Virus record (IMG/VR): IMGVR_UViG_2883489344_000002 | Reading direction: 5' to 3' (one strand) | DNA: 37,764 nucleotides | DNA from: a virus | Taxonomy: Duplodnaviria > Heunggongvirae > Uroviricota > Caudoviricetes | Shown: in pieces, positions 1,024-34,800 of the stretch | Layout of the letters: every line of letters starts with the position of its first letter | Position numbering within the stretch: the stretch's first letter is position 1 | Notes under the pieces: model-generated | The model's database searches: none | The model's input: only the letters and a program-made list of their open reading frames with translations | Told to the model about the DNA's origin: nothing | Program-made: the position numbers and the translations under genes

Positions 1024-1047
1024 GTCCGCTTTTCGCTCAAAGCGGAC
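1024..1047 (+). repeat. 24-bp palindromic site, type A (loop TCGCTC)
   Basis: GTCCGCTTT-TCGCTC-AAAGCGGAC, perfect 9-bp stem. Family member with 1066, 3309, 4260 and 4825. Confidence 0.9.
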
Positions 1048-1065
1048 CTGACGGACAACTGTACA

Positions 1066-1089
1066 GACCGCTTTGTGCCAGAAGCGGAC
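1066..1089 (-). repeat. 24-bp palindromic site, type B (loop TGGCAC)
   Basis: Reverse complement GTCCGCTTCTGGCACAAAGCGGTC is 23/24 identical to 4825-4848. Confidence 0.9.
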
Positions 1090-1250
1090 TGTTCTAACAC
1101 CTTGCGGATTTAATAAGCTGGGGACAGACCAGTGAGGAGGTTTACGAAGATTAAATCAGTGACTAGAAAATCAAAATATGCTAAAAACTTCCGAATAAAA
1201 AATTTATTATAAATTTTGTATAAATTTAAACCACAGCAAAGGAAAAGATC

Positions 1251-2201
1251 ATGACGATCATTTTATTCATTATTGGTATAGTTGTTGTCTCATGTATTTA
1301 TGAAGCTCTTTTTAAGAGTAGCTCAGTTAATGACATCAAGAAAAGCAATAGTGGGACTCAATTTAAGAAAGTTGAACCAAATAAAAATGCAGTAAAAAAA
1401 ACATCGCTGGAATCATACGAAAACATTTCAAAAAAAGAAGACAACCCATCATTTAGTGAAAGCAATGCTGCAATAAATTACATATTATTTAATGCGAAAA
1501 AAAATTCAGAAACATCCCTTGCAGAAAAAGAAAGCAAAGCAGTAAGTCTTGAAGAATTATTTAGCCAAATACAAAACCTGTCTGATAAAAAGTTTGTTTT
1601 TTTCGATGCATTTGAATCTAACGGTTTGTCATGTTATTTTCTACATGACTATTATCCGTTAAAATATACTGACATCTCTGAAAAAAACAAAGAAAATAGA
1701 AAGATTGTTTATGATTTTAAAGATGGTTTGTTAAATGAAAAAACAAAGAATATCCCTAAAGAGATAGCGACAATTTTGCTGAATAGTTTTAGTAAGGATT
1801 TACTAAAAGAAACAATATTTATATGTCTTCCTTCCTCTACACAGCTAAAATATAGAAGAAGATATACGCGCTTCAGTGAAGAAATTTGTAAATCTTGTGG
1901 AATGATAAATTTTTTCCAGCATGTATCCTATCTTTGGGATAGGAAAGCAAAACATATTGAGGGAATCTCTGCGGGCAGTGAATTATCTCACATTTATTTC
2001 CCTGAAAAAATAGTAGAAAATAAGAATATAATAATTTTTGATGACGTTTTCACTACAGGGAAAACACTCCACGCCATGGAATCAAAATTAAAGCTATACG
2101 GAGCAAACGTCGTGGCAGCCATTTTTATTGGTAAAACTTATGATCAGCATAGAATCAAAAAGGGCATGCTCCGAAAAACCTATTCTTTGATTGAGGATTA
2201 A
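1251..2201 (+). CDS. ComF-like phosphoribosyltransferase with N-terminal membrane anchor; putative ShosT-like defence effector
   Basis: PRPP-binding loop IIIFDDVFTTGKT. Hydrophobic residues 1-21, then a K/E/S/N-rich linker. AT-rich; stop is 3 nt before the DprA-like gene. Confidence 0.85.
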   Translation: MTIILFIIGIVVVSCIYEALFKSSSVNDIKKSNSGTQFKKVEPNKNAVKKTSLESYENISKKEDNPSFSESNAAINYILFNAKKNSETSLAEKESKAVSLEELFSQIQNLSDKKFVFFDAFESNGLSCYFLHDYYPLKYTDISEKNKENRKIVYDFKDGLLNEKTKNIPKEIATILLNSFSKDLLKETIFICLPSSTQLKYRRRYTRFSEEICKSCGMINFFQHVSYLWDRKAKHIEGISAGSELSHIYFPEKIVENKNIIIFDDVFTTGKTLHAMESKLKLYGANVVAAIFIGKTYDQHRIKKGMLRKTYSLIED

Positions 2202-2204
2202 ACT

Positions 2205-3167
2205 ATGGGATTGAGTGCATCAAATATTTTATTCCTAAAATCAGTTCCTTACGTAGGAAACCAATCAGTGTTAAAACTTTTAGGGCAAGATAAGGGAAAT
2301 GATTATGTATCTGTAGCCGATATAATTGACTTCTTTCTAAGCACTTCAAAAATGAAGACCATTAGGTTGGAAACTTTAGATTTCCTGAAAAGCAGAGAAA
2401 AATGCAATAAGTTATACAATGAAATAGAAAGAAAAATTGATATAGGTTATTGTAGTGGTGTCATTCCTCTTGGTTATAATGACGACAATTTTCCTACATC
2501 ATTAAAAATTATAAAAAATAAAAGCGGGGGTAATATTGCCCCTACTGTTATCTTCTACAAAGGGAATGTCGATTGTTTAAGCTATAGTCAAAATGCTACT
2601 GTTATTGGCTCTAGAAAACCTACTGAGCGGACAAAGAAAGCCGGGGAGTATATAGCAAAATTTCTTTCGGATAATGATTTTAATATCGTAAGCGGCTTAG
2701 CCAAAGGATGCGATGAAATAGTCCATTCGGTTGCAGTATCTAGAAAAACAAAAACCACTGCTATTTTGCCACAAGGTATCGATAAAATTTACCCTTCCAC
2801 TAGTACAAAGCTAGCCGAATCTATCGTTGATACAGGTGGTATTCTTCTGTCTGAGCTTATGATTGGCGAACGTGTAACTAAATATAGCTTAGTAGAAAGA
2901 GATAGATTGCAAAGCGCTATTTCAGATAAAACTATCGTTTTACAAACAGCAATAGATGGAGGAACTATGCATGCAGCAATGAGTGCGCTATATAATCTGA
3001 AAAAACTCTATGTCATCGATTACAAATCTATAAATAGTGAGGATGCTGTTTTTTATTCAGGATTTGAGCATTTACTAAGCAATGGCGCGCAAAAATTGAA
3101 TTCGAATGAAATGTATAATTTAGTGACAATGAAAGAGAACAAAAAACAAGAATCTTTATTTGACTAA
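2205..3167 (+). CDS. DprA/SMF-family protein; putative ShosA-like partner
   Basis: DprA Rossmann motifs VIGSR, IVSGLAKGCD, GGILLSE, ERDRLQSAIS, GGTMH. Operonic with the PRTase. Confidence 0.9.
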   Translation: MGLSASNILFLKSVPYVGNQSVLKLLGQDKGNDYVSVADIIDFFLSTSKMKTIRLETLDFLKSREKCNKLYNEIERKIDIGYCSGVIPLGYNDDNFPTSLKIIKNKSGGNIAPTVIFYKGNVDCLSYSQNATVIGSRKPTERTKKAGEYIAKFLSDNDFNIVSGLAKGCDEIVHSVAVSRKTKTTAILPQGIDKIYPSTSTKLAESIVDTGGILLSELMIGERVTKYSLVERDRLQSAISDKTIVLQTAIDGGTMHAAMSALYNLKKLYVIDYKSINSEDAVFYSGFEHLLSNGAQKLNSNEMYNLVTMKENKKQESLFD

Positions 3168-3308
3168 TAACTTTACGTAGCTAAGTGGATACATAATGGC
3201 AAGCTGGTCAACTGCCTAATAATCAGTTATCTGGTACTGACCTGCTTTCCGACGATCATCACATGTTAATATTAGTCATGCCGCCCGACGGTAATGAAAA
3301 ATGAGAAC

Positions 3309-3332
3309 ATCCGCTTCTCGCTCAAAGCCGAC
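3309..3332 (+). repeat. 24-bp palindromic site, type A
   Basis: ATCCGCTTCTCGCTCAAAGCCGAC, 21/24 identical to 1024-1047. Confidence 0.85.
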
Positions 3333-3343
3333 CTTATGCCGCG

Positions 3344-3394
3344 TCAAGCCACGTTATGGCAAAACAGCCCGTGCTGTCGATAGCGTGGATAGCC
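3344..3394 (+). repeat. 51-bp inverted repeat, left copy
   Basis: TCAAGCCACGTTATGGCAAAACAGCCCGTGCTGTCGATAGCGTGGATAGCC; 48/51 identical to the reverse complement of 4198-4248. Confidence 0.95.
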
Positions 3395-3595
3395 AGAGAT
3401 TATCCCCTACATGGCCCGTACCGCCGTAGCTAGTGCGGACCATCGGGAACCGAAGTAGGGGGATCCCTACAACTGGCACGTGCTGTCGTTAGCAATTGGG
3501 CGATTTGAGAGAATTGCCTGCCTGTCGCGGACAGCTATGAGAGAGGTGAGATCGGTCGTGTTTAATCCGCCGCCTGTTCTGCCGGCTCCGCCCAC

Positions 3596-3618
3596 TTATC
3601 CACCGTTTCTGTGGATAA
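3596..3618. promoter_or_regulatory. Inverted pair of DnaA-box-like 9-mers
   Basis: TTATCCACC-GTTTC-TGTGGATAA. The second is a perfect TTATCCACA on the minus strand. Confidence 0.45.
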
Positions 3619-3643
3619 CCCGCGGCCAGGTCTGCCTGACCTG

Positions 3644-3997
3644 CTACCACAACGCCGTCATGATGCTGGGTTCGCCGTCGGCCATGCCCCAGAACATCAC
3701 CTGCAACCGGGGCATCAGGCCCATTCCCGCCATCACCGGGTTCAGGGCCTGTGCCGGGTCAGGGTGAGCCTCCCGTTCGGCCTGGAGTGTGATCTGTAAC
3801 GCCTCAGCGTCAGCCAGATGTTCAAAGGTCAAAGCCATGGACACGTCCCGCCCCCAGTAGCCTGCCCCCAGGTAAAACAGATCGCCCGTCACGTCCGGGC
3901 GCCGGATCACAAATCCCATTGGGCGAATATCTTGTTTATTGTTCGACTGCACAATGTGTAGCCAGAATTCCCGTGTTCCCGCTTCTTTACTCATCAC
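3644..3997 (-). CDS. Hypothetical protein (up to 117 aa)
   Basis: Open frame only; no recognisable domain; start uncertain. Confidence 0.4.
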   Translation of the reverse strand: MMSKEAGTREFWLHIVQSNNKQDIRPMGFVIRRPDVTGDLFYLGAGYWGRDVSMALTFEHLADAEALQITLQAEREAHPDPAQALNPVMAGMGLMPRLQVMFWGMADGEPSIMTALW

Positions 3998-4236
3998 TAC
4001 CTAATAATCAGCGATATTTTCCAGTCAGGATGCCATAGCACGTCTTCTTTCCCATACGACGGGGGACTCAATTCAGGCAAAATCAGAAGGATGCCAGGTA
4101 GCGCGAGGATCCCGGGCAGCCCGAGATACATAACAAGGCCGTGGATGAGCCGCGGCGGCACGACCCATGTATGGGAAACATGTCTATTTTGGTTCCCGGC
4201 GATCCACGCTAGCGACAGCACGGGCTGTTTTGCCAT
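3997..4236 (-). CDS. Hypothetical small hydrophobic protein whose start lies inside the 51-bp repeat
   Basis: MAKQPVLSLAWIA is encoded by the repeat itself; central hydrophobic stretch. Confidence 0.3.
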   Translation of the reverse strand: MAKQPVLSLAWIAGNQNRHVSHTWVVPPRLIHGLVMYLGLPGILALPGILLILPELSPPSYGKEDVLWHPDWKISLIIR

Positions 4237-4248
4237 AACGTGGCCTGA
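4198..4248 (-). repeat. 51-bp inverted repeat, right copy
   Basis: Reverse complement matches 3344-3394 at 48/51. Confidence 0.95.
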
Positions 4249-4259
4249 CAGGGCGAAAC

Positions 4260-4283
4260 GTCCGCTATGAGCGAGAAGCGGAC
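4260..4283 (-). repeat. 24-bp palindromic site, type A
   Basis: Reverse complement GTCCGCTTCTCGCTCATAGCGGAC. Confidence 0.9.
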
Positions 4284-4327
4284 ATGGTATGGGGCCGATT
4301 ACACATTAGTAACCTGACCCAGAAGAT

Positions 4328-4729
4328 TTAATTTTGCTTGTTCTGGTATAGATCCCAGCGGTTACCGTAAATGTCTTCAAACACCACGACCATCCCGTAA
4401 TCCTCCTCCCGCGGCTCCTGGCAGAAGTGGACACCCTTCGCTTTCATGGCGTTGTAGTCGCGCCAGAAGTCGTCAGTCTGTAAGAACAGGAAAACCCGTC
4501 CACCGCACTGGTTGCCGATAAAGCCTTCCTGCCGCTCGTTTGAAGCACGGGCCAGGAGAAGATTACAGTCGCTTTCCGGATTTGGCGTCACAACGACCCA
4601 GCGCTTACCCGGCTGCGGGGTGTCTTCTACCAGCGTAAAGCCCAGCTTATCGGTGTAATACTCAATTGCGCGGTCATAGTCGTCGACCACGATCGCCACA
4701 TAACCCATGCATCGTTTTTGCGTTCTCAT
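4328..4729 (-). CDS. VOC family (glyoxalase/bleomycin-resistance-like) protein
   Basis: YVAIVVDDYDRAIEYYTDKLGF, GKRWVVV, GGRVFLFLQTDDF and VVVFEDIYGNRWDL are typical VOC motifs. SD GGAG before the ATG. Confidence 0.92.
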   Translation of the reverse strand: MRTQKRCMGYVAIVVDDYDRAIEYYTDKLGFTLVEDTPQPGKRWVVVTPNPESDCNLLLARASNERQEGFIGNQCGGRVFLFLQTDDFWRDYNAMKAKGVHFCQEPREEDYGMVVVFEDIYGNRWDLYQNKQN

Positions 4730-4824
4730 TTCTGCTCCATCAGGTTTCAGACACAGCTTTCTTGAAACAACTTTTTAACACAATCTAACGCTACTAGCTG
4801 CACAGATGAGGCCAAAATAATAAC

Positions 4825-4848
4825 GTCCGCTTCTGGCACAAAGCGGAC
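4825..4848 (+). repeat. 24-bp palindromic site, type B
   Basis: GTCCGCTTCTGGCACAAAGCGGAC. Confidence 0.9.
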
Positions 4849-5118: not shown

Positions 5119-5763
5119 TTATCGATATCCAAAATAATCCCTGTCGCGCTCTTTGGCATAGGCCTTATCCAGGTTAAGCGTATCGCCGCGCGCATCGCCA
5201 AACGGCACGTTGCCCACGCCCCCATCAAAGCTGTTATCAGGCGACCCGGCGGCCAATGCCTCGAATGGCGTCACCCTTACGTCATCCTCGGGGTGCAGCA
5301 GCTGGTTGATACGGCCGGATACGGCGCTGATCTCGGTGGCAGTCATAATGGTGCCGCGCGGCTTGGTCTCGTTAAAGACCCCGACACCCGAAGACGGCTC
5401 CAAGGTATTGCCCGAGTCCGCTCCGTAGAGCTTCATGATCTCCCACGTACCCTCAGCTACATGCTGCGGGGAGTAATACTCATGCGTCGATCCGCCGATC
5501 CCGCCCTCGCCGGTGTACCCCGCCAAGGTCTGACGCTGCTCGTCTGTCAGCTGCGCACCGTCTGGCAGGCTCTCCAGCAACGCGATCGCTTTCTGGTTAG
5601 CTTCCTTGCGAGCGCGCTCGATAGACACCCCCGCCTGCTTGCGGATCCCGAAGGTCACAACCGGCCGGCGGCTGGCCAGCGATCGGATGATCCGCACAAT
5701 CTCTGAAATCGAGTTACAGCCCTGAATGGCGGCACTGATTTTGTTCCGTAAATCGTCAGGCAT
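5119..5763 (-). pseudogene. darB: Truncated P1 DarB homologue (N-terminal ~214 aa, partial methyltransferase domain)
   Basis: EANQKAIALL, LTDEQRQTLAGYTGEGGIGGS, NTLEPSSGVGVFNETKP, SGRINQLLHPED and GNVPFG match the P1 DarB N-terminus as recalled. P1 DarB is over 2000 aa. Similarity stops near 5140 and no downstream frame continues it. Divergent from prt as in P1. Confidence 0.93.
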
Positions 5764-5803
5764 TCGCCATCTCCAAAGTGAACATTTGCTACGTTGCCGC
5801 CAC

Positions 5804-5824
5804 ATTCTAGGAATTCTTACATCT
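5804..5824 (-). promoter_or_regulatory. P1-type late promoter for darB
   Basis: Minus strand AGATGTAAGAA-TTCC-TAGAAT; same box-N4-TANNNT layout as three other copies. Confidence 0.6.
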
Positions 5825-5842
5825 AAGAGGGTTGTGGCTCCG

Positions 5843-7582
5843 ATGCCGAAATTTGCATACGACACCATTCGCAAAGCACTGGAAGCAGCAATGCCCGGTA
5901 GCGCATCGAATAAGGGGGTTCCTTTGGCACTGGGTCCCACCAGCAGCGGCGGTAATGGCGTGGTTTATTCACGCTCTGCCCTGTTTGGCAACGATGCGGC
6001 GGGAAAAGACTTCACTGACACGCTGGTTAATCCTGGCGGGCAAGTCTTAGATGAGGCGGTGCTACCTGAAGATCGGCTAATGCGCTATCCGTTTTTAGAG
6101 GAGATGGCCGCTTACCCAACCCTTTCGGCCGCGCTCAACATCCATATCTCCTATGCGTTTTCGATAGACAAAACCACCAATCTTTCGTTTCGGCTGAAGC
6201 CGGTAACCAATAGCGAAGACAAGGATTTTGAGTCTGCACAAACGCTCTGCGAGGAGCTGATGGCGGACATTGGGCGCACCATCAACGACGAATTACCGGG
6301 CTGGGCAACCATCATGGCTGTGTTTGGCACGGGCTATATCCGGCCGCACACCAAGCCCAAGGTAGGTATTACCGGCTTTGAGTCCAATTTCTACACCCTG
6401 CCCTATTTCATCCGTGAGTATGAAGTGGGTGGCCAGCTGGCCGGCTTCACCGGGGACTACCTGAAGGATGGCAATGGTGCGCTGGTATTTGCCAAGCCGT
6501 GGGAAATGGTGCCAATGCGCATCCCCTATTGGCGGCCGAAGAAAAACCAAATGCCGATGTACACCGGCACCGAGCAATTCAGCCTGTTATCTGATCCTGA
6601 AAAGCGCGTTCCCGTTGAGACCCAAAACTATGGGACCAGCCTGTTTGAGTATGCCTATGAACCGTATCTCAACCTACGGGCGGCCATCCGCTCGGTAAAG
6701 GGCACCCGCTTCAATGCCAGTAAGGTCGATCGGCTGATCGGGGTTCAAATGTCCTCCCTTGACCCGGCGCGTGGCGCGGAATACAGCCGTACCCTTTCCC
6801 AGCAGCTCAAGCGGTCTGCCGAACAGGTTGAGAAGCGGGCGCGCGGTCACAAAACCGCTCCGACCGTGATCAATACCCTGCTGCCTATCCTGGGGGCGGA
6901 CGGCAAAGGTCAGCTGCAAATCGACACGCAGACAATCCCGGTAGACATCACCGCTCTGGAAGACGTGATGTTCCACATCAAACAGCTGACCGCCAGTGTT
7001 GGAATGGATTACACCATGCTGGGCTTTGCTGACCAGATGTCTGGCGGGCTGGGGGAAGGCGGTTTCCTGCGCACGTCCATTCAGGCCGGCATGATCGCCA
7101 GCTGGTTGCGCGGCGGTGCCGCTGAGATGATTTACCGGATGTGTGACATTCACCTTGCCTTCAAATACGGGAAGGTTTACCCGCCCGGACAACGCCCGTT
7201 CGAGATCGAATTTAACTCGATGGCCACCAGCATCGAACTGGAAGAAAACGCCGCGCTCGATGGCCGCGCCAACTACGCCAGTGTGCTGGTGACCATCATT
7301 GATGCCATTTGCAATAACCCATCACTGGCCGGCTCCGAGACGTTCAAGCAGCTGGTGATGGGAGACATTTTAAAGGTGCCGCAGGAGCGCCTCTCCCTAC
7401 TGCTGACCGAGATCAAAAACGCCCCCAGCACAGAGGGCAACAACATGATGGAGAGCTTGGGCATCACGCCAGACCAGACGATCAGCGACCCGGATTTGCT
7501 GGCCATCATGAAAGCTATGCCCCGTGGCGATCTGGAGGACGTCATATTGAAAACATTCTGTAACCAAGAGGAAAAGCCATGA
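5843..7582 (+). CDS. prt: P1-like portal protein
   Basis: LPEDRLMRYPFLEEMA, ETQNYGTSLFEYAYEPY and DQMSGGLGEGGFLRT match P1 Prt. Start placed at ATG 5843 (GTG 5834 possible); the ORF-track extension overlaps darB. Confidence 0.95.
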   Translation: MPKFAYDTIRKALEAAMPGSASNKGVPLALGPTSSGGNGVVYSRSALFGNDAAGKDFTDTLVNPGGQVLDEAVLPEDRLMRYPFLEEMAAYPTLSAALNIHISYAFSIDKTTNLSFRLKPVTNSEDKDFESAQTLCEELMADIGRTINDELPGWATIMAVFGTGYIRPHTKPKVGITGFESNFYTLPYFIREYEVGGQLAGFTGDYLKDGNGALVFAKPWEMVPMRIPYWRPKKNQMPMYTGTEQFSLLSDPEKRVPVETQNYGTSLFEYAYEPYLNLRAAIRSVKGTRFNASKVDRLIGVQMSSLDPARGAEYSRTLSQQLKRSAEQVEKRARGHKTAPTVINTLLPILGADGKGQLQIDTQTIPVDITALEDVMFHIKQLTASVGMDYTMLGFADQMSGGLGEGGFLRTSIQAGMIASWLRGGAAEMIYRMCDIHLAFKYGKVYPPGQRPFEIEFNSMATSIELEENAALDGRANYASVLVTIIDAICNNPSLAGSETFKQLVMGDILKVPQERLSLLLTEIKNAPSTEGNNMMESLGITPDQTISDPDLLAIMKAMPRGDLEDVILKTFCNQEEKP

Positions 7583-31531: not shown

Positions 31532-31875
31532 TATGGTGTTACCTCAGTGTTGATCGTCCCTTCTGGGAGCTTGATGATTAATTGCGCCCAGTCGATAGCG
31601 CGCGGCACGTAGCTGATGCCGGTGATCCGCAGATTGGGTAAGTCCTGTGACAGCTTCTGTAACAACCGGCACTCAACGTTGACCTGTTCGCGGATCGAAT
31701 CCATTGGCTGGTGCTTAAACTGATGCAGGATGCAGCCCCAGCTTGGCTGCCCATACACACTTCCCACGGGTGTATCCAGCCATTCCCGCAGCTGGGATGC
31801 TTTCGATTGCAGCTCGCCGCCGTACTCCTTCAGGCCGTTTGTTTCCAGGGTCATGAGATGGTCAATCTCTTTCAT
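31531..31875 (-). CDS. pmgA: P1 PmgA-like (gp25-type) baseplate protein
   Basis: EWLDTPVGSVYGQPSWG..L.QFKH, LLQKLSQDLP. Confidence 0.9.
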   Translation of the reverse strand: MKEIDHLMTLETNGLKEYGGELQSKASQLREWLDTPVGSVYGQPSWGCILHQFKHQPMDSIREQVNVECRLLQKLSQDLPNLRITGISYVPRAIDWAQLIIKLPEGTINTEVTP

Positions 31876-31886
31876 ATTGAGCCTCC

Positions 31887-34800
31887 TCAGCTATTGGCCA
31901 CATTGGCCATTAAGGGATCGTTAATGGAAAGCGGTACGCTATTGCGCGGCGCTGGCTGTGGCGTGTTGGCCTTTGGTGTCTGGTCGCCGGCCTTCTCTGC
32001 CGAATCCTTGGTATGCCCACGGATCTCGTCCAGCGTATCGCTCATTTTCTTTAACAGTGCAGTGGCTTCTTTTGGGAAAGCCGGCTGGCTGTTTGCCACG
32101 TTTACGCTGGGCTGCACGTGGCTGGCCGAAAAGTCTTGCAACATGGGCATTCTGACTGGAATAGCTATGCCCGGTCGGCCAACTGCGGCCGACTTTCTTG
32201 GGCGTGGCGGCGGCGCGCCCCCAAATAAGGATTGCGCCAGGGCGGCAGTGTTTTGGTGTCGCAGGCCTTCGGCATTGCGCACCTTATCTCCGCCCAATTT
32301 TTTGATAACTGGACCCATGAATGAGTTCTCAAGCGGTAGCTTGGCACTGGTGTACAGCGGGGCATTTTTGGCGGTCGCGGTCGCGGTAGCAGCCGCAGAC
32401 GGTTTGGCCGGCGCGGACGCCTTGCCATGCTCGGCATCGTATACCGCCTGGATTTGCTCCTGAAGTGGTGTGGCCGGCGCGGTCGGCGCGGACGCCTTAC
32501 CCTGCTCGGCATCGCGCACCCGCTGGATCTGCTCCTGAAGTGGTGTAGCCGGCGCGGCCGGCGCGGACGCCTTGCCATGCTCGGCATCGTATACCGCCTG
32601 GATTTGCTCCTGAAGTGGTGTGGCCGGCGCGGCCGGCGCGGACGCCTTACCCTGCTCGGCATCGCGCACCCGCTGGATCTGCTCCTGAAGTGGTGTAGTC
32701 GGTGCGGCCGGTGCGGACGCCCTGCCATGCTCGGCATCGTATACCGCCTGGATTTGCTCCAGAAGTGGTGTGGCCGGCGCGGTCGGCGCGGATGCCTTGC
32801 CCTGCTCTGCGTCGTGCACTGCCTGGATCTGTGCCTGGAGCGGTGTCAGTGGCGTGTTTGTGGCCGTATCCTGCTGTTGCGCCTCATGGGGCGGCTTTTT
32901 GGCCGCCTGGGCATGTTGGATAACCTCCCCACCGGCGGCCGGGGGAACGTTGGCTAAGTTAGCCAATGAGGAACCATCACCGACTGACTTGCCGTGCACC
33001 GATGCCAGCCCTGAGAATTGAGCATCCTTGGTAATCGCTGCCTTGCCCAGCTCATGGCGCTTTTGGTTGATAATGCTTAACGTAGAGTCGTTAAATTCAC
33101 CGACCCATTTGCCAGGCTGGCCATTCTTGCCCTCATGGTATTGGCCGATCGAATTTTGGATGTAGGCATCCTTAACCTGCGGGTCACCCCCCTCAGCCTG
33201 GGTGATGGCGCGCATAAGCTTTGTCATCACCTCTGGATTTTTCATATCCAGCTTGTCGTTCACCCCAACATTCAAGTCCTTCGACAACTTGGCCATGTAC
33301 CGCTGGGTATCGTTCTCCGTTGCTGGCGCAAAGTTTGGGAAAATCTCGCCAATAGTCTGGAGCTTTTTGTTACCCACAACTTTGGAGGTGCCCTCAGAAT
33401 AGCTGGTGAGCTGGTTGGCCAGCGCCCGGAATCCTTCTTCCGGCGTATCAAAGCGGGCAAAGCGGCGCTCCCCATTGGCGTTGGCGTTCTCCAGGCGCGC
33501 GCCTTCCTGCCCAGCATATTGCAGGTTGCCAAAATTATTGTTTCGGAAGTTACGGTTTGCCGCGTTGCTGCCACCAATGTTCAGCTCAGGGCTAACGTTA
33601 TCTGTCTCAGGCTGGGTAAAACGGGCATAGGTGCGGGCACCAAAGCTTTCTGCCTGCGAAGCCGCTTCGCTTCCCATCTCGCCCACTTTCTCAAAGAAGT
33701 CCCCTGACCCCACAGCTTTCGCCAGGTCACCTACTGCTTTCGTGGTCGCGTTAGCGCCGGCCTCAATGGCTTTGATAACTTGGTCAGTGCGGTCTTCAGC
33801 GGCCTGTTCCGGGAGGTTGCTTGCCACCGCGCCAGCAGCACCTGCCATGCCTGCAACACTGCCGATACCCAGCGCACCGCCGGCTTTGGAGGCCAGGGTT
33901 TTGGCCGCTGTTACCTTACTGTCTAGCCCGCGCGCAATATCGCCCGTGTTGAATGTTAGCGCCTTTGCCGCCCCGTCCCAGCCCATGGCCGATGCGCCCT
34001 TAGCCAGCAGACCCGCACCGCCAGAGACCAGGCCGCCCATATCCAGGACATTGGCGGCCGTAAATTCGGCCTTTTGCCGCTTGCTGGCCTCCTGGCCTTC
34101 TTTGAGCTTAAAGGCGTCCGCCTGGCCTTCCTTATCCCTCCAGCCTGTTACCGCGTCATAGCCGGCACCAAGGACTTGCCCTACTACCGGCACTGCCCGG
34201 AGCGCGGTTTTCGCTGCCGTTTTGGCCGCCAATTTGGCCGCTACTTTTTTTTCACCCTTTTCTGCCACGCCCTCAGCCGCTGCGACTACCTCTTTACCCG
34301 CAGTTTTTTCAACCCCTTCCCCTACTGGCTTCAGCTTGCCCGGCTCTTCAGCCGGTGCTGCATTGGGTTTGCTTTTAGTTGACTCGGTGCTTGAGGTTTT
34401 AGGCTTGTCTTTTTCAGGACGCTTTTCAGACCGATCGCCAGCCGCCTCCTCGGCTGCTCCTGCGGCAGCGGAAGGTTTACCGGAACTCTTGCCTGTTTTG
34501 GCAGCCTTACGGGCTTCACGTCGCGCGCGACGTGCCTCACGGCGCTCCTTGCGGGTCATCTTGCGCTTTTTCTTGCCGTCATGCCCTTCGGGCAGATCGC
34601 ACCCGCAATCATCACCGCCACCCAGCCCGCCCAAGCCATGGCCAGGCTTTTTCTTGCGGCCTGGAATAAGCTTCGTCAGTGCGCCAAGGCCAAGGCCTGT
34701 CAGCAGCCCGCCCAGCAGCTTTTTGCCAAGCTTGGCCAGGGCAGCGCCGCCCAGCAATGCCCAAATACCACCGCCACCTTTCGAGCCGTGATGTTGCTTT

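Follow-up and report, generated by a model that had tools for sequence, protein, structure and literature searches.

Two types of 24-bp palindromic sites bound exchangeable gene modules on a P1-like phage-plasmid and on other replicons of Enterobacterales

The window analyzed here, 37,764 nucleotides of the virus record IMGVR_UViG_2883489344_000002 (Caudoviricetes), is the first 37.8 kb of the circular 101.9-kb contig C7. Based on its portal, tail-fibre, baseplate and DarB-like profiles, this contig is a P1-like phage-plasmid, and it belongs to a genome consisting of a 3.9-Mb chromosome and seven further contigs. The window contains five palindromes of 24 bp that are members of a site family with two types, A and B, and a fixed grammar. 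Module boundaries lie at these sites, whole modules are gained, lost and replaced between strains, and the point of exchange was located inside a site. The comparisons made here, all of them between sequences, render it probable that the A and B sites are a widespread family of 24-bp recombination sites, at which an enzyme supplied in trans performs a conservative exchange and the difference between A and B serves as a compatibility code.

An initial annotation of the window, made from the sequence alone, had interpreted the palindromes as the ends of mobile cargo units in a gene-cassette system. This cassette reading turned out to be largely right, and the points that had to be revised are given together with the respective results.

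Two site types with a fixed arrangement

A search of the window with the pattern GTCCGCTT-N8-AAGCGGAC, allowing for up to three mismatches, resulted in five matches, all of them located between 1024 and 4848, exactly where the initial annotation had placed five palindromes with two types of loop. The mean number of matches in shuffled sequences was 0.08, and none of 100 shuffles reached five. The two kinds of loop, YTCGCTCA in type A and CTGGCACA in type B, have six of their eight positions in common. Two modules are bounded by the sites in the window, namely a ShosTA gene pair (from the B site at 1066 to the end of the A site at 3332) and a VOC gene (from the A site at 4260 to the end of the B site at 4848). 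The orientations of the sites are given in Table 1. Two more details of the initial annotation were confirmed: the spare A site in front of a B site forms an A-18 nt-B junction at 1024-1089, and the sequence seen beside two of the A sites corresponds to the 85-nt arms of an inverted repeat (3310-3394 and 4198-4282), which are 88% complementary and extend the two inner A sites.

The grammar of the family was derived from 172 sites collected from 34 sequences, with 86 sites of each type. Each site is composed of an 8-bp arm, an 8-bp centre and a second 8-bp arm, and both types have a conserved AA two bases in on the cargo side. It is the positions 3 and 6 of the centre that tell A from B, and these are completely linked, as 75 sites have C..T, 87 have G..A and none has a chimeric centre (C..A or G..T). 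Compensatory changes account for 30 of the 89 double changes in the arms. This is the proportion expected by chance, indicating that the arms are conserved as sequence and not merely for their pairing.

All 45 close pairs consist of an A+ site followed by a B- site at a spacing of 11-18 nt (modes 15, 16 and 18), and 60 neighbouring B-..A+ pairs enclose cargo of 0.54-8.5 kb. Neighbouring A and B sites have opposite orientations in 112 of 113 cases, and arrays follow the pattern B, cargo, A, 11-18 nt, B, cargo, A. The B-gene-A polarity on the coding strand, which the initial annotation had noted for the two modules of the window, is not a general rule, since only 17 of 26 distinct single-direction modules, counted from annotation tables, read from B to A and the other nine read from A to B. 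The constant feature is rather that B and A are mutually inverted. Many modules contain divergent genes plus a regulator of their own. Target-site duplications were absent from all 54 modules examined, including those without neighbouring sites.

Module boundaries and exchange between strains

Copies of the VOC module of the window are present on pPant1 of P. vagans, on a P. ananatis plasmid (twice) and in Pantoea sp. JZ29. In a five-way alignment, the homology extends from the A site to the B site, and all flanks are unrelated. A Klebsiella IncFIB/FII plasmid carries a doublet that matches the one of the window, spacer included (1022-1088), at 89.6% identity, again with unrelated DNA on both sides. 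Since the homology runs through the whole sites in both comparisons, the exchange points are located inside the sites. Boundaries at the repeats also hold for the VOC, LysE, O-methyltransferase (OMT) and ASCH modules on plasmids.

On the chromosome belonging to the phage-plasmid, the modules comprise an MFS transporter, an FAD monooxygenase with a LysR gene, a SnoaL-SDR-AKR-AraC set, and a cytosine methylase with a partner gene. Sister genomes that have any of these modules contain them as separate units, each with its own sites. The chromosomal doublet region is not conserved in the sister genomes.

Precise gain or loss at the sites, which according to the initial annotation should be sought in relatives, was found in Duffyella gerundensis. 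The plasmid pEM01 carries a row of NIPSNAP, LysE, hypothetical-gene, GST, OMT, four-gene and six-gene modules, which are joined by A-15/16 nt-B doublets. The strains compared share a backbone of about 98% identity and differ by whole modules, with the junctions inside the sites. Strain A4 lacks exactly the first three pEM01 modules, and the junction is located inside a B site. This site is a hybrid with one arm from each parental site, and the parental sites share nine identical bases, which is far below the need of RecA-dependent recombination. Strain AR lacks a 3.4-kb module, with a B-by-B junction, and possesses LysE-GST-OMT in a different array. In the same strain, an ASCH module with a 96% identical counterpart on the second EM595 plasmid replaces the hypothetical-gene module between the same two neighbours.

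The Z/fun slot of phage P2

In phage P2, the two Z/fun genes are preceded by a B- site and followed by an A+ site, which have four and two mismatches to the A/B consensus, respectively. The same slot is occupied by a NUDIX and a HAD gene in P2_4C9 (one and two mismatches) and by a different open reading frame (ORF), ORF1, in P2-EC67 (three and four mismatches), in both cases again between B- and A+. In all three phages, the slot is located in conserved backbone, flanked by the genes for tail-fibre assembly and for the sheath. The two Z/fun sites are covered by repeat_region features, annotated in 2002-2004 as left and right inverted repeats, in the GenBank entry AJ512685. Judged by their sequence and arrangement, the sites of the window are the same kind of element as the one noted at the Z/fun locus of P2 two decades ago. 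Hence, the statement of the initial annotation that no named system explains the palindromes needs to be qualified. Both loci have the same site family and the B..A arrangement around swappable cargo in common. The window differs from the P2 locus in that its sites are located inside darB of a P1-like phage-plasmid, include an A-spacer-B junction and bound two oppositely oriented modules.

Judging from the title of their 2004 paper (Mol Biol Evol 21:1-13), Nilsson, Karlsson and Haggard-Ljungquist reportedly proposed a site-specific recombination and linked the repeats to other enterobacteria. In a passage of Rousset et al. (2022), Nilsson et al. (2004) is cited for the variable loci of P2. A survey from 2026 on the hotspots of P2 and P4 describes a very fast swapping of defence loci, leaves the mechanism open and does not mention the repeats (PMC13586616). 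The two site types, the doublets and the plasmid arrays are not described in the literature that we searched by sequence and keywords, a search that did not cover the contents of Nilsson et al. (2004).

Distribution of the site family

The chromosome of the genome to which the window belongs carries seven strict sites in 3.9 Mb (0.18 per 100 kb), all of them within 230 kb (1.43-1.66 Mb). Its plasmids carry 19 sites, concentrated on the contigs C4, C6 and C7. When a 78-nt junction was used as query against a plasmid collection, 2194 records were matched, including 1173 from Klebsiella, 391 from Enterobacter and 152 from Pantoea, and megaplasmids of Pantoea and Duffyella contain up to 25 such places each. 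In a survey of 121 genera of the family, 34 possess at least one site at one mismatch or less; a reversed control pattern gave 0-2 matches per genome. Among complete E. coli genomes, 1014 of 5426 (about one in five) have a site, nearly always on the chromosome. In a phage collection 30 records match, about half of which are P2-like (Peduovirus, P2-type and related Escherichia and Yersinia phages). The sites that frame the Z/fun slot of P2 would also act as a two-site code on phage-plasmids, on megaplasmids of the plant-associated Erwiniaceae, on plasmids of Klebsiella and Enterobacter and in those E. coli genomes that carry them. Their simple sequence can be used to mark out the limits of mobile cargo, among it the ShosTA and dGTPase defence systems.

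In two Klebsiella IncFIB/FII plasmids (loci L004 and L037), the module rows start about 1 kb downstream of the IncFII repA and contain defence-type cargo. In one of the plasmids this is a dGTPase, whereas the other has a helicase together with an ATPase and a TerB-N protein, beside a Lit-like gene. On a P. ananatis plasmid, an IS110-family transposase gene (L002 11641-12584) is located about 50 bp beyond a B+ site. IS110/IS1111 elements target palindromic repeats, and the A/B sites may also serve as landing places for them.

A model for the exchange of modules

Identical arms, centres that never mix, exchange inside the sites, the lack of duplications and an identity too short for RecA fit, when taken together, a conservative recombination by an enzyme acting in trans. 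In such a reaction, a dedicated recombinase would recombine A with A and B with B inside the sites, and the overlap region of this enzyme would span both discriminating positions of the centre. An overlap of this geometry points to a recombinase of the tyrosine type. Owing to their incompatible centres, the two ends of one module would not recombine with each other and modules would be stable, so the difference between A and B would function as a compatibility code. Wherever a replicon offers a further A or B site, modules could be lost, taken up or exchanged. In the window, two such modules and one junction doublet are part of the accessory DNA that has taken the place of the central portion of darB in the P1-like phage-plasmid.

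Several observations weigh against this model. In the enzyme screen, for which five families were sought in five genomes and one protein in 121 genomes, the site-rich genomes had no obvious special enzyme in common and no recombinase was identified. Arms of 8 bp are short for known tyrosine recombinases. The first acquisition of two sites by a new gene is not explained by recombination between sites, and isolated chromosomal modules without neighbouring sites exist, which a site-by-site recombination does not account for. Moreover, the doublets of Duffyella have a 15-nt spacer consensus in common and offer about 63 bp of similarity, so that some of the events could be ordinary homologous recombination.

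A wider proposal, for which we see a chance slightly short of even, is that the A/B sites constitute a general, integron-independent gene-exchange system of Enterobacterales. Here, one recombinase acting in trans on two incompatible site variants would trade defence, detoxification and metabolic modules among P2 hotspots, P1-like phage-plasmids, megaplasmids, conjugative plasmids and chromosomal islands. If this is true, it would supply the mechanism so far missing for the fast turnover of cargo in the hotspots of phages and plasmids. The turnover of hotspots becomes a testable recombination reaction with defined 24-bp substrates, and with the discovery of the enzyme, integrons and dif modules would be joined by another gene-capture system.

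Comparison with known systems

Like integrons, the arrays are rows of mostly single-gene modules set apart by short palindromic sites, the modules come, go and are replaced as entire units, and the doublet can be folded into a stem with fixed mismatches. In contrast to integrons, there is no IntI and no attI, and the arms correspond to GTCCGCTT and AAGCGGAC in the 172 sites. The absence of R and L boxes and of a GTTRRRY core agrees with the initial annotation, which had described the sites as not attC-like. A further difference is that each module has two heterotypic sites and is exchanged at both of them. Unlike the co-oriented, mostly promoterless cassettes of integrons, the modules carry genes in either direction (17 forward, 9 reverse) and in many cases regulators of their own.

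The dif modules of Acinetobacter (pdif, XerC/XerD) resemble the A/B modules in being plasmid modules bounded by short sites of alternating orientation, with an enzyme that is not encoded by the module, and for both kinds of modules the movement itself has not been reconstituted. The A/B sites differ from dif sites by their 8-8-8 layout (dif: 11-6-11), by arms that are unlike the XerC/XerD binding arms of the generally known dif/cer consensus, and by the fact that their two orientations are two distinct sequence variants. There is also a parallel to cassette exchange with heterospecific lox or FRT sites, where identical arms are combined with two incompatible centres and each end pairs with its own kind. 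These systems are man-made and have 13-bp arms recombined by Cre or Flp, whereas an exchange of this kind at the A/B sites would be natural and make use of 8-bp arms.

Search for the enzyme

Neither a tyrosine nor a serine recombinase gene was found in the window (no PF00589 match), as the initial annotation had already stated. The latter had suggested that the cargo ends are recognized in trans by a recombinase or an HUH-type enzyme. This suggestion holds in so far as the modules are discrete units that move between unrelated replicons, but an HUH enzyme is not supported. The Y1 HUH transposase PF01797 (RAYT, IS200) was found neither in the Duffyella genome, which is the richest in sites, nor in genome G066; in the genome of the window it occurs on contig C5, which carries no sites. 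A Y2 (IS91-type) transposase was detected only in genome G085. Small tyrosine recombinases of about 200 residues were not found in the two richest genomes (that of the window and that of Duffyella), and those of genome G131 are a Fim-type pair. No Rfam family matches the sites.

Several individual candidates were examined and rejected. The plasmid recombinases with a length of about 340-370 residues belong to a single clade, which has a member on a site-free plasmid as well, and were therefore judged to be resolution enzymes; the only PF00589 match on C7, at 68.8 kb, is a member of this clade. The recombinase on contig C4 of the same genome is a P2-type phage integrase beside a CI repressor. 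For the Cre-like Pantoea recombinase (Panto/pox), the site is rox-like with a 13-8-13 layout and unrelated to A/B, and no link to the sites was found for xerC-mcr-10.

Pairs of tyrosine recombinases occur on the D. gerundensis plasmid pEM02 (L047), which has three copies of a two-recombinase element (about 700 and 330 residues), one of them at 31655-34745. One of these elements ends 17 bp from a B+ site, at a place where an A site would be expected.

A resolvase clade with a B site is only a lead. It was recognized by a 757-bp block that contains res-like subsites, a gene for a serine resolvase of 198 residues and a B- site, which follows the stop codon at a distance of 18 nt. The block is present in five replicons of four genera (C2:30823-31579 in the genome of the window, corresponding to L012 824-1580, and the loci L062, L063, L064 and L026). 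Its identity amounts to 92-98% in Pantoea, Mixta and Klebsiella plasmids and to about 84% in the 5'-truncated copy of Duffyella. The flanks are unrelated on both sides, the left border is located inside a res subsite, and the B site is followed by different cargo each time. As regards a recombinase that co-occurs with the sites, for which the initial annotation had recommended to look, this clade does have a B site physically coupled to it; in homologues of 80-90% identity the site is missing, however, and no recombinase could be identified by co-occurrence.

Alternative explanations

Other explanations than a conservative recombination in trans have to be considered. One of them is that the doublet of 64-66 bp is itself a selfish element of the REP/BIME kind spreading between genes, and that the modules are by-products of homologous or microhomology-mediated shuffling. 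The architecture of the doublet mirrors the Y and Z palindromic units of the E. coli BIMEs, since two types of palindromic units in inverse orientation are combined by short linkers outside genes, and the same doublet with its spacer was found in two unrelated contexts. Spacer families are shared within and between genomes, and genes flanked by sites would also be accounted for. We nevertheless consider this unlikely. REP/BIME elements are associated with RAYT, and no RAYT/Y1 transposase was found in D. gerundensis or G066. The A/B sites bound swapped cargo, have a low copy number and are rare on chromosomes (0.18 per 100 kb) but concentrated on plasmids, phages and islands, and their clustering in arrays, with as many as seven single-gene modules in succession, goes far beyond that of an intergenic repeat. 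In addition, the parental sites of a deletion share nine identical bases only, and a presence/absence polymorphism of a lone doublet was not seen. The doublet might alternatively be the functional unit of an integron-like system and be recombined as folded single-stranded DNA by an integrase-like or HUH enzyme. Its predicted fold is a single long hairpin (-22 and -19.6 kcal/mol, z -5.9 and -5.0) that consists of a 24-bp stem with a loop of 15-18 nt and two constant mismatches (C.C and T.T on one strand, G.G and A.A on the other). These mismatches resemble the extrahelical bases that mark the strand in attC; they do not vary, since every doublet combines an A with a B site and the combinations A-A and B-B do not occur. 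However, boundaries are located at both A and B and not at one point per doublet, compensatory changes are not in excess, single sites and isolated modules are common, and the screen revealed no IntI-type enzyme and no Y1 or Y2 enzyme beyond the occurrences on C5 and in G085. A folded site appears slightly less likely than a selfish doublet.

No higher probability can be assigned to a small serine recombinase of the resolvase family, that is the clade with the B site or a relative of it, recombining sites of 24-26 bp at the central GC. The occurrence of the 757-bp module in several genera, with differing cargo past the B site, would be consistent with such an enzyme. Moreover, the clade at an identity of at least 92% was found in only two genomes among the 121 genera, and these are the two richest in sites. 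Crossover sites of serine resolvases have two half-sites of roughly 12 bp with an outer motif of the TGTCYG type around a 2-bp centre. The resolvase half-site TGTCCGAAA has its outer hexamer in common with the arm YGTCCGCTT, and among the arm variants the most frequent one (C to T at position 4) agrees with the generally known TGTCYG consensus of the Tn3 family. Yet the 2-bp palindromic GC overlap would permit an exchange between A and B, and there are no chimeric centres. Wild-type resolvases need accessory sites, the copy of Duffyella lost its 5' end, the gene is present on few Pantoea plasmids, and genome G131 possesses sites but no match to the resolvase family. In view of the homologues without the site, the linkage may go back to a single historical junction. 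Finally, the sites could be ordinary terminators or mRNA-stabilizing hairpins that travel together with their genes, or else they could be the terminal inverted repeats of a transposon of the cut-and-paste (DDE) kind. Each site has the potential for an 8-bp hairpin (predicted at -7 to -8 kcal/mol), site 5 has a T-rich tail on the minus strand, and the B..A ends, viewed as terminal inverted repeats, are identical in 22 of 24 positions. The simple terminators that the initial annotation had named as an alternative are at odds with the counts, as only this one of the five sites has such a tail and the region contains three terminator-like sites where 3.8 are expected. The loops are more conserved than the stems require and fall into two linked types, which does not suit a terminator either. 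A DDE transposon or MITE is contradicted by the missing duplications at the 54 modules, and there is no Rfam match. We therefore regard this last explanation as highly improbable.

Cargo and setting of the array

According to their profile matches, the phosphoribosyltransferase (PRTase) and DprA genes are a ShosTA toxin-antitoxin pair for anti-phage defence. The cargo identities proposed in the initial annotation were confirmed for this pair by PADLOC and for the VOC gene by its assignment to the glyoxalase family (Table 1). The ShosT-like PRTase has an N-terminal hydrophobic stretch with a weak DUF4834 match (residues 2-67) outside the ordinary ShosT models, and its PADLOC match begins at residue 122.

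Table 1 Features of the module array and its right border in the window
Feature	Position	Strand	Remarks
Site 1, type A	1024..1047	+	Perfect arms, loop TTCGCTCA; left half of the junction doublet
Junction spacer, 18 nt	1048..1065		Separates site 1 (A) from site 2 (B)
Site 2, type B	1066..1089	-	One mismatch; left end of the ShosTA module
ShosT-like phosphoribosyltransferase, cargo	1251..2201	+	Pfam PF00156; PADLOC ShosT, E 1.7e-13
ShosA, DprA-like, cargo	2205..3167	+	Pfam PF02481, E 2.9e-47; PADLOC ShosA, E 4.9e-56
Site 3, type A	3309..3332	+	Decayed, two arm mismatches, without stable hairpin; right end of the ShosTA module
85-nt inverted repeat, left arm	3310..3394		A site plus 62 nt on the outer side
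Orphan GC-rich segment between inverted A sites	3395..4197	-	ORFs 3644-3997 and 3997-4236, without family match
85-nt inverted repeat, right arm	4198..4282		Partner of the arm 3310..3394
Site 4, type A	4260..4283	-	One end of the VOC module
VOC/glyoxalase-family gene, cargo	4328..4729	-	Family profile match; module found in four further plasmid contexts
Site 5, type B	4825..4848	+	Perfect; other end of the VOC module
darB N-terminal fragment	5119..5940 (homologous part 5143-5748)	-	Profile positions 2-211 of 2278 residues; right border of the accessory insert

The initial annotation had assumed that the array replaces the 3' part of darB. A comparison with a Pantoea relative that has an intact DarB homologue of 2255 residues revealed that it is the middle of the gene that is replaced, with N- and C-terminal fragments being retained. 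The C-terminal fragment is located at C7:97253-98062 on the same circular contig, and about 5.4 kb of darB have been replaced by about 8.9 kb of accessory DNA spanning the start of the contig. The breakpoints in darB do not coincide with A/B sites.

This accessory insert contains an additional B+ site at C7:100605. It is located 84 nt past the end of an ORF of 675 residues (C7:98494-100521) without Pfam match, which may be another cargo module whose A site decayed. The insert also contains a fragment of a ColE1-type small plasmid, consisting of an MbeD/MobD-like gene (C7:101429-101731) and the window ORF 1-522. The latter encodes a secreted-looking protein of 173 residues with relatives on 4.4-kb plasmids and on Klebsiella plasmids.

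For the segment between the inner A sites (3333-4259), a search for relatives yielded none except for one 49-nt piece. This stretch (3571-3619) contains an inverted pair of DnaA-box-like motifs, TTATCCAC and GTGGATAA, with a DnaA-box-like palindrome near 3587-3612. Copies with 88-100% identity are present in unannotated intergenic DNA of about 25 plasmids from Enterobacter, Klebsiella, Serratia and Duffyella.

A separate family of repeats of about 730 bp, unrelated to the A/B sites, was observed on the chromosome belonging to the phage-plasmid (C1:1570260-1571000, corresponding to L006 5763-6500). These repeats have an internal inverted symmetry and are present in many copies on the chromosome of the genus, on both strands and with 70-95% identity.

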